Source: Ferruginibacter sp. (GTDB lineage Bacteria; Bacteroidota; Bacteroidia; Chitinophagales; Chitinophagaceae). From it: DNA of 64,000 bases. Below are positions 53,871 through 60,403 of this stretch, one piece after another. The stretch lies in the NCBI GenBank assembly GCA_046597635.1, contig JBKJKD010000144.1, positions 2,905 through 66,904 of the forward strand, written 5' to 3'. Position numbers and translations under genes: made by a program. Numbering within the stretch: the stretch's first letter is position 1; every line of letters starts with the position of its first letter. The notes beneath the pieces are model-generated. The model ran no database searches, was not told the DNA's origin, and was given only the letters and a program-made list of their open reading frames with translations.

Positions 53871-53906
53871 CTGATAACTATCACACATAGGGCTGTGCTA
53901 TATCAA
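53871..53906. promoter_or_regulatory. FNR/CRP-like boxes upstream of the PFOR operon
   Basis: CTGAT-AACT-ATCAC (53871-53884) and CTGTG-CTAT-ATCAA (53893-53906) versus TTGAT-N4-ATCAA. Confidence 0.5.
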
Positions 53907-53967
53907 TGGTTGGGGTGAAGCCTGCGCTTAATTTAGTAGGCGTATTACCATCACCTAATTTATAAAA

Positions 53968-55617
53968 ATGTCATACATAGACATCACCAAACCTGCGGAC
54001 CTCACAAGTCATGCAGATGGTACGGGCCCCACCAGAATGCGTCGCCCGGTTTACCTCGATTTTATGCCCCCATGCAACAGCGCCTGCCCGGCCGGAGAAA
54101 ACATACAGGCCTGGATGGCATATGCGCAGGCAGGCAAATATTTTGAAGCGTTTCAAACACTGGTTGAAGACAACCCCTTTCCTGCCATCATGGGTAGGGT
54201 TTGCGTAAAACCATGTGAAACCGGCTGTAACCGCACACATATAGACAGCACCGTAAATATACATGCGGTAGAACGGTACATTGGTGACGAAGCCATCAAA
54301 CAAAAATGGCCCATCCAGTACCGTACTAATACCTCTGGCAAAAAAGTATTGGTTATTGGTGCAGGCCCCTCCGGATTATCTGCAGCGTATCATTTGGTAC
54401 GTATGGGTCACACCGTTGAAATCTTTGAGGCAGGTAGTCATCCGGGAGGTTTGTTGTGGAGCGGTATACCAGATTATCGGTTACCGAAAAATATTTTAGA
54501 TAGTGAAGTAAACCGTATTGTAAAAGCGGGCGTAAAAATAAGGCTGAATTATAAAGTAGAAGATGTAGTTAGTGAAAAGGAAAACGGAAAATTTGATGCT
54601 GTCTATCTTGCCATCGGCGCCCAGCTTATTTCTAAAGAAAATATTAACCACGACGATTCTGTTTACATCACAGATGCATTCTCGTTTTTTAAAGAGTCAA
54701 AATCAAATTCGTCTCCTTTTATACAAAAGAAAGTAGCTATTTACGGAGGAGGTAAACTTGCCTTATACCTTGCCCGGATGCTGATGAGATTTGGCTCAGA
54801 AGCGACAGTATATTTTGCCGGGGATAAAAAGTTAATGCCTGCCTATGATTATGAAACAGAAGATGCCCTGGCCGAAGGAGTAGATGTACAACTCTTACGA
54901 AGCATCAGCAGCATCGAGAAAAATAAGATTAAGCTGGAGAAAATGGCAGTAGAAAAAGGCAACGCTGTGGGCTCCGGTGAATTTGAGACCGTAGATGCAG
55001 ATATCCTGATTCTTGCCAACAGGCAGAAACCAGACACGGGCTTCCTGCGTGGTTTGAGAAATCTGATTTTTAATGAAGATGAAACGATAAAAATTGATAT
55101 CCAGAGAATGACGGGCCAAGAAGGAATTTTTGCAGGTGGCGACATGCTGCCCGGCGAAAACAGGAGTGCCAGCATTGCAATAGGCCAGGGTAAAAAAGCC
55201 GCCCGTTTCATAGACAGCTATTTAAACCAGCAAGCATTTATTAAAGGAGAAAAACATCCAACAGCAAGTTACCGCAAACTACATATGTGGTATAAAACGG
55301 ATGCACCCATTAAAGAACAAGATAAACTTCCTCCACAGGTTGCCATAAAAAATTTCGATGAAGTGAACGCTGGCCTGGCGGAAAAAGAAGCCCGCTACGA
55401 AGCCCAACGTTGCCTGAGTTGCGGCAACTGTTTTGAATGTGACGGTTGTTTTGGCGCCTGCCCGGAAGAGGCGATTATTAAACTGGGGCCGGGCAAGCGC
55501 TACAAGTTTGATTTTGATAAATGCACGGGCTGTGGTGTTTGTTTTGAACAATGCCCCTGCCATGCCATTGAAATGATTCCTGAACCCACTAAAGAACTAA
55601 CAGATGCCAGCAAATAA
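53968..55617 (+). CDS. GltD/PreT-like FAD and Fe-S oxidoreductase with C-terminal 2x[4Fe-4S] domain
   Basis: PPCNSACP...GRVC..PCE.GC.R, GAGPSG, CLSCGNCFECDGCFGACP, CTGCGVCFEQCP. Confidence 0.88.
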   Translation: MSYIDITKPADLTSHADGTGPTRMRRPVYLDFMPPCNSACPAGENIQAWMAYAQAGKYFEAFQTLVEDNPFPAIMGRVCVKPCETGCNRTHIDSTVNIHAVERYIGDEAIKQKWPIQYRTNTSGKKVLVIGAGPSGLSAAYHLVRMGHTVEIFEAGSHPGGLLWSGIPDYRLPKNILDSEVNRIVKAGVKIRLNYKVEDVVSEKENGKFDAVYLAIGAQLISKENINHDDSVYITDAFSFFKESKSNSSPFIQKKVAIYGGGKLALYLARMLMRFGSEATVYFAGDKKLMPAYDYETEDALAEGVDVQLLRSISSIEKNKIKLEKMAVEKGNAVGSGEFETVDADILILANRQKPDTGFLRGLRNLIFNEDETIKIDIQRMTGQEGIFAGGDMLPGENRSASIAIGQGKKAARFIDSYLNQQAFIKGEKHPTASYRKLHMWYKTDAPIKEQDKLPPQVAIKNFDEVNAGLAEKEARYEAQRCLSCGNCFECDGCFGACPEEAIIKLGPGKRYKFDFDKCTGCGVCFEQCPCHAIEMIPEPTKELTDASK

Positions 55618-59185: not shown

Positions 59186-59377
59186 GCCACCAATGCACGA
59201 ATGAAAATAAAAGGTTTGGCCACGAATGCACGAATGAAGATAAAAGGGTTGCCACCAATGCACGAATGAAGACAAATTTTTGTTGATGGAATTCATAGTT
59301 CATGTTTGTCGTATAGATGATAGAGTAAATGATTCTTATTAAAAGCATAATGTATTTATTCGTGCATTCGTGGCAAA
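59186..59377. repeat. REP/REPIN-like cluster: three tandem gccac(c/g)aatgcacgaatgaa units and one inverted copy
   Basis: Units start at 59186, 59219 and 59251; inverted attcgtgcattcgtggcaaa at 59358-59377. Confidence 0.88.
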
Positions 59378-59413
59378 AAAAAACCGCAGCAACAAAAACT
59401 AAAACTATTTTTT

Positions 59414-60403
59414 ATGGACTTAAGTACATCTTACATGGGATTAAAGCTGAAATCACCGATTGTGGTTTCGGCATGTACCTTATCTGAAGAAGTAAGCAAT
59501 ATTGTGCAGATGGAAGATGCAGGAGCTGGTGCAGTAGTGCTATTTTCTTTATTTGAAGAACAATTAAAAAAAGAAGCAGAGCAATACGAAACCATTGTAA
59601 GAACCACCAGTAACCTGTTTGCAGAAGCCAGTGATTTTTTTCCGGACCTTGATGAATACCACAAAGGGTCTGAGCAATACCTGGAAAACATTCGCATGGC
59701 AAAAGAAAAAGTAAGCATACCCATTATTGCCAGTTTAAACGGCATTACCAATGAAGGTTGGATAAGTTATTCCCAACAAATGGAAGAGGCCGGCGCAGAT
59801 GGCCTGGAGATTAATGTATTTTATATTCCGGGTGATATACAAATATCCTCATCGGCTGTGGAGCACCGTTATCTAAATATCATAGATGAAATTAAAAATT
59901 CGGTAAAGATACCGGTGGCCGTAAAACTCAATCCTTACTTTAGCGCTATGGGTAATATGGCTAAACGCATGCAGGAATATGGCGCAGATGCATTGGTATT
60001 GTTCAATCGTTTTTATCAACCCGATTTTGATATCAACAACCTTAGTCTTCAGCACAACCTGCAGTACAGCGAAAGCAATGAAATAAGGCTGCCCCTGCTT
60101 TGGATAGCATTGCTCTATGGCCGTGTGCCGGTATCATTGGCAGCTACCACCGGCGTACAAAGTTCTATTGAGGTAATCAAATACCTTCTTGCCGGAGCCG
60201 ATATTGCCATGACAGCTTCTGCCCTGTATAAAAACGGAATTGGATATTTAAAAACCATGAACAAAGAACTGGAAGCATGGATGATGACAAAAGAATTCGA
60301 AAACATTGATGCATTTAAAGGAGTAATGAGCCAGCAGCATATCTCCGACCCTACTGCTTACGACAGGGCGAATTATATTAAGATATTGGGGAGCCAGAAA
60401 TAG
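59414..60403 (+). CDS. Dihydroorotate dehydrogenase-like FMN protein lacking the catalytic Cys
   Basis: GAVVLFSLFEEQ, IIASLNG, LEINVFYIP (no SCPN), VKLNPYF, LVLFNRFYQPD. Confidence 0.9.
   Translation: MDLSTSYMGLKLKSPIVVSACTLSEEVSNIVQMEDAGAGAVVLFSLFEEQLKKEAEQYETIVRTTSNLFAEASDFFPDLDEYHKGSEQYLENIRMAKEKVSIPIIASLNGITNEGWISYSQQMEEAGADGLEINVFYIPGDIQISSSAVEHRYLNIIDEIKNSVKIPVAVKLNPYFSAMGNMAKRMQEYGADALVLFNRFYQPDFDINNLSLQHNLQYSESNEIRLPLLWIALLYGRVPVSLAATTGVQSSIEVIKYLLAGADIAMTASALYKNGIGYLKTMNKELEAWMMTKEFENIDAFKGVMSQQHISDPTAYDRANYIKILGSQK

Follow-up and report, generated by a model that had tools for sequence, protein, structure and literature searches.

Pyruvate:ferredoxin oxidoreductase (PFOR) occupies a central place in anaerobic and microaerobic carbon metabolism, and most schemes give it no partner beyond free ferredoxin or flavodoxin. 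In a Ferruginibacter genome the PFOR gene lies between genes for a GltD-like flavoprotein and a dihydroorotate dehydrogenase (DHOD)-like barrel, and the question raised by this arrangement is what the two flanking proteins do for the enzyme that they enclose. An earlier note on this DNA had proposed that they are a rearranged dihydropyrimidine dehydrogenase (DPD)-like pair, acting as an electron-disposal module that reoxidizes PFOR. The window (the whole stretch of DNA analyzed, 64,000 nucleotides) contains the following features at the locus, given by position in the window.

53,811 to 53,831, forward strand: terminator-like hairpin (9 pairs, 6 of them G-C, followed by a T-run)
53,968 to 55,617, forward strand: open reading frame (ORF) of 549 residues, GltD/NfnB/KGOR-alpha-like Fe-S flavoprotein (P0001)
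55,604 to 59,179, forward strand: ORF of 1191 residues, single-chain NifJ-type PFOR (P0002)
59,186 to 59,374, strand not applicable: cluster of four repeat copies (three direct, one inverted) within the 234-nt spacer
59,186 to 59,205, 59,219 to 59,238 and 59,251 to 59,270: direct copies of the repeat GCCACSAATGCACGAATGAA
59,355 to 59,374: inverted copy of GCCACSAATGCACGAATGAA
59,414 to 60,403, forward strand: ORF of 329 residues, DHOD-like FMN TIM-barrel protein of the NF005741/PRK07565 family (P0003)

The three genes are co-directional, all on the forward strand, and the first two ORFs share exactly 14 nt (55,604–55,617), matching the overlap given in the earlier note. Position 53,871, from which that note had counted the locus, lies in the non-coding stretch downstream of the hairpin, 97 nt before the first ATG. 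The gene upstream of P0001 encodes an unrelated protein of 176 residues and is followed by the hairpin at 53,811–53,831, which is the 5′ limit of the three-gene unit. An Rfam scan of 53,000–61,000 gave no matches, promoter-like sites were no more frequent than expected by chance (19 seen, 20 expected), and the hairpin at 53,811 was treated as the only meaningful terminator-like site. The third gene does follow a repeat cluster: the 20-nt repeat GCCACSAATGCACGAATGAA occurs four times in the 234-nt spacer, three times in direct and once in inverted orientation, where 0.01 matches are expected by chance. A separate promoter could lie within this repeat-filled spacer. The second copy and the inverted copy could form a 20-bp stem, but the spacer fold, with a z-score of −2.3 and no U-tract following, is not counted as a terminator. 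The motif is missing at the corresponding site in most relatives. It is also found on another contig (C158) of the same genome.

P0002 is an ordinary PFOR and the center of the proposed three-gene redox unit. It matches TIGR02176 over its full length at 1804 bits (cut-off 911), with a complete domain set (POR_N, PFOR_II, POR, EKR, 2xFer4 and TPP_enzyme_C), and residues 10–1180 align, in effect over the full length, to the PFOR of M. thermoacetica (6cin_A, 1337 bits). The cysteine motifs for three [4Fe–4S] clusters and the TPP motif are present (CIQCGNCAYVCP, CTGCNLCVEVCP, GACAGCGE, ATGCSS and GGDGWAYDIGYGGLDH), and all of them align to 6cin_A. In profile comparison, PFOR residues 679–773 match the ferredoxin domain of PreA.

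The domain content of the flanking proteins is likewise as the earlier note had claimed, with NF009410 (P0001), TIGR02176 (P0002) and NF005741 (P0003) all matched above their curated cut-offs. P0001 scores 635 bits (cut-off 516) against NF009410 (PRK12771, NAD(P)-binding GltD-like), with residues 8–539 covering profile positions 22–565. Its layout, fixed from HMMER alignments, comprises an N-terminal Fer4_20 Fe-S domain, a Pyr_redox_2 region with the FAD and NAD(P)H Rossmann folds, and a C-terminal 2x[4Fe–4S] domain, so that the ferredoxin domain is indeed carried by the GltD-like subunit. An RCLSCG motif (residues 481–486) stands before this canonical ferredoxin domain (C488..C498 and C519..C529), and all 16 cysteines are invariant among the trio homologs wherever the region is present. 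The nearest solved chains are 9bov_A, 9n5u_A and 8oh5_C, followed by NfnB chains; the relatives of P0001 are NAD(P)H-linked Fe-S flavoprotein modules, namely StnC-type chains and NfnB. The nucleotide site lacks the NADPH-type GxGNTAMD ... YRR pattern and reads GGGKLALY ... YFAGDKK, whereas the trio proteins of Saprospiraceae and Competibacteraceae retain GGGNTAMD ... IYRRDR. The Chitinophagaceae subgroup to which P0001 belongs has thereby remodeled this nucleotide-binding motif. The change from NTAMD...YRR to KLALY...YFAGD in this subgroup makes the nucleotide preference of P0001, and even nucleotide binding, uncertain. P0001 probably passes PFOR electrons to NAD(P)+.

P0003 matches NF005741 (PRK07565, "dihydroorotate dehydrogenase-like protein") at 463 bits (cut-off 303) over residues 1–328, and Pfam DHO_dh at only 44 bits. 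Since the DHOD profile alignment starts at residue 3, P0003 has no extension of the class-2 type; in class-2 DHODs the N-terminal extension forms the quinone site. Residues 132–139 read EINVFYIP, and F136-Y137-I138-P139 stand opposite the S-C-P-N of L. lactis DHOD B (1ep1_A, E-L-N-I-S-C-P-N) in the profile alignment, from which it follows that the catalytic cysteine is swapped for tyrosine. The absence of cysteine from this loop, pointed out previously, extends to the family: among 55 diverse members the loop has no conserved Cys or Ser, and the family as a whole has lost the catalytic Cys together with two substrate-binding positions. The lysine equivalent to K43 of DHOD-A also appears unconserved, as judged by eye from the family alignment. 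In comparison, the residues that align with the FMN site of DHODs are retained (K171, N109, N134, N198, G247 and S269), the first five being invariant or nearly so across the family, and P0003 is accordingly a predicted FMN binder as judged from these aligned residues. An AF2 model (pLDDT 83), with a low-confidence, family-specific insert at about residues 48–82, gave domain IV of pig DPD as the best Foldseek match (E = 2e-16, TM 0.70), with class-1 DHODs next (TM ~0.7). The chain ends at residue 329 without an Fe-S motif and has no PreA-type C-terminal 2x[4Fe–4S] domain. Fusions of the DHOD-like domain comprise one with a response regulator, and other long forms carry no extra domain. An 820-residue open frame at one locus (L129) was set aside as a high-GC reading artefact, as PFOR and the DHOD-like protein are encoded by two distinct genes at that locus.

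The neighborhoods of this family, collected using a 12-sequence DHOD-like alignment as the query, place it with PFOR. The survey took in 100 loci from over 10 phyla, and in 84 of them a PFOR gene stands directly upstream of the DHOD-like gene on the same strand; the phyla include Bacteroidota, Acidobacteriota, Cyanobacteriota, Chloroflexota, Ignavibacteriota, Verrucomicrobiota, Pseudomonadota, Deinococcota and others. Across these 84 same-strand loci the two genes lie a median of 62.5 nt apart, with several overlaps, and the same gene order recurs in 16 of 20 further loci from another phylum sample. The genes for PFOR and the DHOD-like barrel are tightly linked, the pair is ancient, and together they form the conserved core. 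Of the 84 loci (window excluded), 18 also carry the GltD-like gene, always in first place, with PFOR and then the DHOD-like gene after it on the same strand. The other 66 of the 100 loci with the pair show no such gene, although a few of their contigs stop too early for one to be seen. No NF009410 member above the cut-off was found anywhere in four pair-only genomes, and the surveyed loci revealed no other conserved neighbor of the pair. The linkage in 84 of 100 loci, the 66 loci without a GltD-like gene and the pair-only genomes without NF009410 together argue that the DHOD-like protein is PFOR's own partner and the GltD-like protein a one-clade addition.

The trees concur. The 18 full-length trio PFORs form a single split against 54 pair-only PFORs (support 100), and in the DHOD-like tree the trio proteins all fall inside one clade (support 99). 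As this clade spans and mixes Chitinophagales and Competibacteraceae, the three genes travel together; the GltD/NfnB-like flavoprotein joined the pair in one clade, to which this genome belongs, and has been co-inherited with it. Not every DHOD-like gene of the PFOR clade lies next to a PFOR gene, the few exceptions being L021, L023 and L061. The phylum sample drawn via L085 (NCBI label Actinomycetota) contained no NF009410 member above the cut-off; given that its DHOD-like loci are of low to moderate GC and of the pair type, and that L085 branches among cyanobacterial sequences in the DHOD-like tree, this sample is probably cyanobacterial. Divergent DHOD-like paralogs adjoin a Hox hydrogenase operon and NfnAB, and in another Bacteroidota genome (L099) a GltD/NfnB-like gene lies directly upstream of such a DHOD-like paralog.

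On balance we favor a three-gene redox unit, in which electrons would pass from PFOR through the GltD-like protein to NAD(P)+ and the FMN barrel would serve as a second redox partner. PFOR would convert pyruvate and CoA to acetyl-CoA and CO2, with the electrons running along its three [4Fe–4S] clusters. In the trio, the GltD-like protein may dock through its C-terminal, PorD-like ferredoxin domain and pass electrons over up to four clusters (as judged from the cysteine motifs) to its FAD and on to NAD(P)+, so that the two proteins would constitute a pyruvate:NAD(P)+ oxidoreductase without need for free ferredoxin. The barrel, with its FMN-site-aligned residues kept and its catalytic base lost, would most likely exchange electrons, in either direction, with the ferredoxin-like domain V of PFOR, a wiring modeled on DPD, in which the FMN barrel is wired to the ferredoxin domain; it would thereby provide a second, two-electron outlet. 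Contact among P0001, P0002 and P0003 is predicted. The co-transcription reported for the trio of Propionibacterium (PMC7650540) and the transcription unit that nifJ shares with sll0744 in Synechocystis (PMC11368403) also count in favor of this reading. A parallel for the first part is the KGOR of Azoarcus evansii, reportedly characterized biochemically by Ebenau-Jehle and colleagues in 2003 as a 2-oxoglutarate:NADP+ oxidoreductase. It is reported to resemble the trio in joining a 2-oxoacid:ferredoxin-type oxidoreductase to a GltD-family flavoprotein subunit and in reducing NADP+ directly, and to differ in its substrate (2-oxoglutarate) and its KorAB-type core. To our knowledge it has no DHOD-like subunit. 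KGOR-alpha has been placed among the GltD homologs (PMC10134865).

The closest competitor is the pairing from which we started, a DPD-like heterodimer (NAD(P)H-FAD-4x[4Fe–4S]-FMN) made up of the GltD-like and the DHOD-like protein, which as a unit would either reoxidize PFOR or reduce a pyrimidine-like substrate. Domain and structure-chain matches bear out that the two proteins jointly hold every DPD domain type; DPD and E. coli PreT-PreA have in common with the trio the GltD-like FAD/Fe-S module, the 2x[4Fe–4S] domain and the FMN TIM barrel, and the gene order at L099 also fits. However, in DPD and PreT-PreA the ferredoxin domain belongs to the barrel subunit, whereas in Ferruginibacter it is on the GltD-like subunit and the barrel has no catalytic Cys. 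Unlike preT and preA, the two genes are separated by PFOR, never adjoining each other in trio loci, and the barrel is widespread without a GltD-like partner. The 66 loci with PFOR but no GltD-like gene, the four genomes that lack an NF009410 member and the family-wide loss of the catalytic and substrate-binding positions further count against the heterodimer, which we consider improbable. The earlier claim that the flanking proteins are the basic pair is therefore not sustained, as 84 of the 100 loci have the DHOD-like gene behind PFOR, 66 of them with no GltD-like gene in view.

About as doubtful is a role for the DHOD-like protein as a protective valve that passes electrons from the reduced PFOR clusters to O2, fumarate or some other plentiful acceptor, allowing an oxygen-sensitive enzyme to survive in aerobes and microaerobes, with the GltD-like protein as an independent ferredoxin:NAD(P)+ reductase. 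Many hosts of the pair are found in cyanobacteria (L049, L059, L064 and L082 among the loci), Acidobacteriota and Chitinophagaceae, groups that are largely aerobic or facultative, and the divergent paralogs stand beside oxygen-sensitive, low-potential enzymes. Yet the family also occurs in the anaerobe Bacteroides thetaiotaomicron (from the control list), and the sequence gives no sign of an oxidase. In Synechocystis sp. PCC 6803 the nifJ operon sll0741-sll0743-sll0744 is one transcription unit and, sll0744 included, is induced on the shift from oxic to dark microoxic conditions (PMC11368403), which speaks for a valve and is also the literature support for the low-oxygen role suggested in the earlier note. 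As in Ferruginibacter, PFOR precedes the DHOD-like gene there (sll0744, known by its annotation "DHOD (fumarate)"), but that operon lacks a GltD-like gene, and PFOR and sll0744 are separated by a small hypothetical gene.

The least likely of these three readings, by a small margin, is flavin-based electron confurcation or bifurcation (McCubbin et al. 2020), whereby the FAD of the GltD-like protein would join low-potential electrons from PFOR and high-potential electrons arriving through the DHOD-like FMN (for example from quinol) onto NAD(P)+, or the reverse. In its favor are a layout with three terminals about an NfnB-type FAD module and the publication of the hypothesis for the same gene trio, which had already been reported in Propionibacterium in 2020 (PMC7650540). 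In the nifJ1 cluster described there, PFOR lies between a "glutamate synthase small chain-like" gene, to which an extra ferredoxin-binding site is ascribed, and a "dihydroorotate dehydrogenase-like" gene; co-transcription and co-regulation of the three are reported, with a function that is postulated only (PMC7650540). By that published description it is the same trio in a different phylum, so the arrangement was previously known and the Ferruginibacter locus is a further example; our literature search found no biochemical study of a PFOR/DHOD-like operon. McCubbin and colleagues compare the DHOD-like gene with NfnA, whereas P0003 is a PyrD-type barrel and not of the PyrK/NfnA type. Applying the criteria for bifurcating NfnB in PMC12221290, we found no nfnA (PyrK-like) gene directly upstream of P0001 and no Arg at the position of PfNfnI-B Arg333: MPAY of P0001 stands opposite MTAR of 5vj7_A, and the position is Tyr in P0001 and His in the other trio proteins. 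Both features, together with P0003 having no N-terminal extension, speak against confurcation. Stand-alone NfnB-like proteins are ferredoxin:NADP+ oxidoreductases (PMC12221290), and P0001 has the Fer4_20 and Pyr_redox_2 core in common with NfnAB and with the monofunctional Cac_0764-type enzymes, resembling the latter class in having neither nfnA nor Arg333. It differs from the NfnB types in that its opening Cys motif lies behind the FAD domains (a StnC-like topology), in its additional ferredoxin domain, and in the translational coupling of its gene to that of the presumed electron donor.

That the genes are neighbors without shared function and P0003 an ordinary pyrimidine enzyme, as its Pfam DHO_dh match and the JGI name for such genes ("dihydroorotate dehydrogenase (fumarate)") might suggest, is very hard to credit and disfavored, given a separate canonical PyrD elsewhere in the genome (281 bits), the lost catalytic base and the linkage to PFOR across many phyla. 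The electron-module reading of the earlier note thus holds in part: the co-conservation of the three genes stands, as a co-inherited unit within one clade (18 loci), as do the missing catalytic Cys and the separate PyrD, while the GltD-like and DHOD-like proteins as its core pair do not.

The three-gene redox unit that we favor can be carried further, as a tentative and rather less probable proposal. The DHOD-like barrel might be an unrecognized, dedicated redox subunit of PFOR, whose diverged forms would serve Hox hydrogenase and NfnAB, making it a TIM-barrel acceptor or donor for low-potential Fe-S enzymes; the trio might then be a three-terminal, possibly electron-confurcating, pyruvate:NAD(P)+ complex.

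A gene that follows PFOR in more than 10 phyla, cyanobacteria among them, and whose family extends to Bacteroides, represents a gap in a well-studied pathway. To this the Ferruginibacter locus adds one more example of the trio and the remodeled nucleotide-binding motif of a Chitinophagaceae subgroup. If the GltD-like protein makes PFOR NAD(P)-linked, the electrons of pyruvate should be assigned to pyridine nucleotides, and not to ferredoxin, in metabolic models of Chitinophagales and Competibacteraceae, the latter being plentiful in wastewater sludge.

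The interval 53968–60403 contains three co-directional ORFs, assigned from their sequences to a GltD/NfnB-like Fe-S flavoprotein (P0001), a NifJ-type PFOR (P0002) and a DHOD-like FMN barrel (P0003):

53968–55617, plus strand: P0001, 549 aa; Fer4_20, FAD and NAD(P) Rossmann folds, C-terminal dicluster ferredoxin domain
55604–59179, plus strand: P0002, 1191 aa; standard single-chain PFOR
59186–59374, three direct copies and one inverted: 20-nt motif GCCACSAATGCACGAATGAA, with two CGAATG half-sites within
59414–60403, plus strand: P0003, 329 aa; DHOD-like protein

The earlier note had described a 14-nt overlap between the first two genes and a repeat cluster preceding the third; the overlap is exact by ORF coordinates, and the four motif copies (against 0.01 expected) do lie in the 234-nt PFOR-to-DHOD-like spacer. 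The cluster is bounded upstream by an unrelated small exported-protein gene, then a terminator-like hairpin, and downstream by an unrelated convergent gene (642 aa).

Pattern scanning across 185,579 species genomes returned 595 relatives, the best 80 loci of which, from more than ten phyla, were examined using tblastn. Among those of the 80 with enough flanking sequence, nearly all have PFOR immediately upstream in the same orientation; a P0001 homolog precedes PFOR only in Chitinophagaceae, Saprospiraceae, Haliscomenobacter, Competibacteraceae and two other proteobacterial MAGs, and clustering all ORFs of the 80 loci yielded no further shared neighbor. Twenty additional Bacteroidota regions comprised four trios, nine pairs lacking the GltD-like gene, and seven diverged paralogs (35–40% identity) without PFOR. 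Across the resulting 100 loci there were 18 trios, 66 pairs and 16 loci lacking a neighboring PFOR; for several of the 16, the contig breaks off before this could be judged. Between the PFOR stop and the DHOD-like start the median gap is 62.5 nt (84 same-strand loci), a few of the genes overlapping, and no NF009410 member above the cut-off is present anywhere in four pair-type genomes. The earlier proposal of a dihydropyrimidine-dehydrogenase-like pair wrapped around PFOR thus stands in part: the trio is co-inherited within one clade, but 66 of the 100 loci carry PFOR and the DHOD-like gene without the GltD-like one. PFOR and the DHOD-like protein are a conserved pair, and the GltD-like gene is a clade-restricted, co-inherited add-on.

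A second phylum sample, drawn from the NCBI label of locus L085, contained the DHOD-like gene in 71 of 301 genomes; the 20 loci inspected included 16 pairs and no trios. The L085 MAG (G301) is labeled Actinomycetota, possibly in error: its DHOD-like protein falls among cyanobacterial sequences in the tree, and the sample resembles cyanobacteria in GC content and gene order.

A FastTree phylogeny of PFOR separates the 18 trio sequences from 54 pair sequences in a single split (support 100). In the DHOD-like phylogeny (IQ-TREE, quick search) every trio sequence falls within one clade (support 99); apart from trios, the only full-flank members of that clade are two pairs at its base and two or three loci without adjacent PFOR. 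As the trio clade mixes Bacteroidota with Gammaproteobacteria, the three genes moved together. Because related genomes share labels, the trees show a single origin and co-inheritance of the trio, not independent repeated association.

The spacer motif recurs on one other contig of the same genome (C158, near 19834, 24035 and 29236). Most relatives lack it here and have only a short gap between PFOR and the DHOD-like gene, so it appears to be a small dispersed repeat that was inserted recently. One relative (L013) has a single degenerate copy at the same site. The motif could form a 20-bp stem, lacking a U-tract, and an Rfam scan of 53000–61000 gave no match.

P0002 matches TIGR02176 at 1804 bits. 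It can be aligned over its full length to Moorella PFOR (6cin_A), and every cluster motif and the TPP motif are present; its ferredoxin-like domain V matches the PreA ferredoxin domain. As the genome also encodes E1-type 2-oxoacid dehydrogenases, PFOR probably provides a second pathway for pyruvate.

P0001 matches NCBIfam NF009410/PRK12771 (635 bits, cut-off 516), and the ferredoxin domain noted earlier on the GltD-like subunit is present as its C-terminal dicluster domain. Among solved structures P0001 is closest to the GltD-like modules of long StnC-type chains (9bov_A, 8oh5_C, 9n5u_A), and next to NfnB chains (5vj7_A, 4ylf_B, 5jca_L). The NFxEV...EA.RCLxC motif that opens NfnB occurs at residues 446–500 (window 55307–55467), on the C-terminal side of the FAD and NAD(P) domains, a position shared with StnC-type chains, and is followed by the canonical CxxCxxCxxxCP motif pair; alignments of this segment to NfnB N-termini are weak (9–12 bits). 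In this arrangement the Fer4_20 domain appears to be circularly permuted. None of the 16 Cys varies among the trio homologs that contain the region, and 16 would be enough for four clusters. Judged by upstream nfnA and Arg333, the criteria set out in Huang et al. 2025 (PMC12221290), P0001 was rejected as an NfnB: no nfnA precedes its gene, and Tyr occupies the position of Arg333. At residues 256–292 (window 54733–54843), GGGKLALY...YFxGDKK replaces the NADPH-type GGGNTAMD...IYRRDR. This KLALY...YFAGD-type change is found in a Chitinophagaceae subgroup that includes the window and in Haliscomenobacter trio proteins, and the NTAMD...YRR motif is kept in other trio proteins, including those of Saprospiraceae and Competibacteraceae. 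The swap in the Chitinophagaceae subgroup suggests an altered nucleotide preference.

P0003 belongs to a very large family (924 clusters at 50% identity, E ≤ 1e-30), scoring 463 bits against NF005741/PRK07565 "dihydroorotate dehydrogenase-like protein" (cut-off 303) and only 44 bits against Pfam DHO_dh; the genome has a separate canonical PyrD (281 bits). One family protein, P0239 (500 aa), has a response-regulator receiver domain fused to the barrel N-terminus, a single case. The AF2 model of P0003 predicts an FMN-type TIM barrel (pLDDT 83) closest to pig DPD domain IV (E 2e-16, TM 0.70), then class-1 DHODs, at ~18% identity. In the profile alignment EINVFYIP lies opposite ELNISCPN of DHOD B, so that the catalytic Cys becomes Tyr and the adjoining Ser and Asn become Phe and Pro, bearing out the absence of Cys noted earlier; no conserved Cys or Ser occurs in this loop across 55 diverse family members. 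P0003 has lost the catalytic base. K171, N109, N134, N198 and G247, which we take to be DHOD FMN-site residues (partly from the DHOD B alignment, partly from DHOD residue numbering), are invariant or nearly so in the same 55. A family-specific stretch at residues ~48–82 begins with an invariant SLFEEQ motif and is modeled at low confidence. Class-2 DHODs form their quinone site with an N-terminal extension; the P0003 alignment to the DHOD profile starts at residue 3, so P0003 has no extension of this type.

The same flanking genes have been described around Propionibacterium nifJ1, where co-transcription and co-regulation were reported and an Nfn-like bifurcating complex was postulated (McCubbin et al. 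2020, PMC7650540). A literature search found no functional study of sll0744, the "DHOD (fumarate)"-annotated gene of the Synechocystis sp. PCC 6803 nifJ operon. Azoarcus 2-oxoglutarate:NADP+ oxidoreductase (KGOR), whose alpha subunit has been placed among GltD homologs (PMC10134865), offers a characterized precedent for a 2-oxoacid oxidoreductase NADP-linked via a GltD-type subunit. Likewise, P0001 would carry electrons from the PFOR clusters to NAD(P)+, and the P0003 barrel may exchange electrons with PFOR domain V.

DHOD-like genes also occur in other settings:

L094 (G131:C7:153700-170800), ~8052–14186, minus strand: a diverged member of the DHOD-like family (35% identical to P0003) right after a Hox-type NiFe hydrogenase operon of HoxE/F-like (607 aa), HoxU-like (229 aa), HoxY-like (181 aa), HoxH-like (481 aa) and 166-aa genes
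L099 (G243:C1:117700-134800), 5696–9051, plus strand: PyrK/NfnA-like (276 aa), GltD/NfnB-like (493 aa) and DHOD-like (332 aa) genes in tandem, an NfnAB-type pair followed by a gene of the P0003 family
L096 (G111:C9), 4839–9752: PFOR, DHOD-like gene, then flavodoxin gene (169 aa)
L108 (G156:C1), 4456–10152: PFOR, then a tandem pair of DHOD-like genes (43% and 39% identical to P0003)

Because diverged paralogs adjoin a Hox hydrogenase operon, NfnAB and a flavodoxin gene, these loci point to a general role for the DHOD-like family with low-potential Fe-S enzymes.
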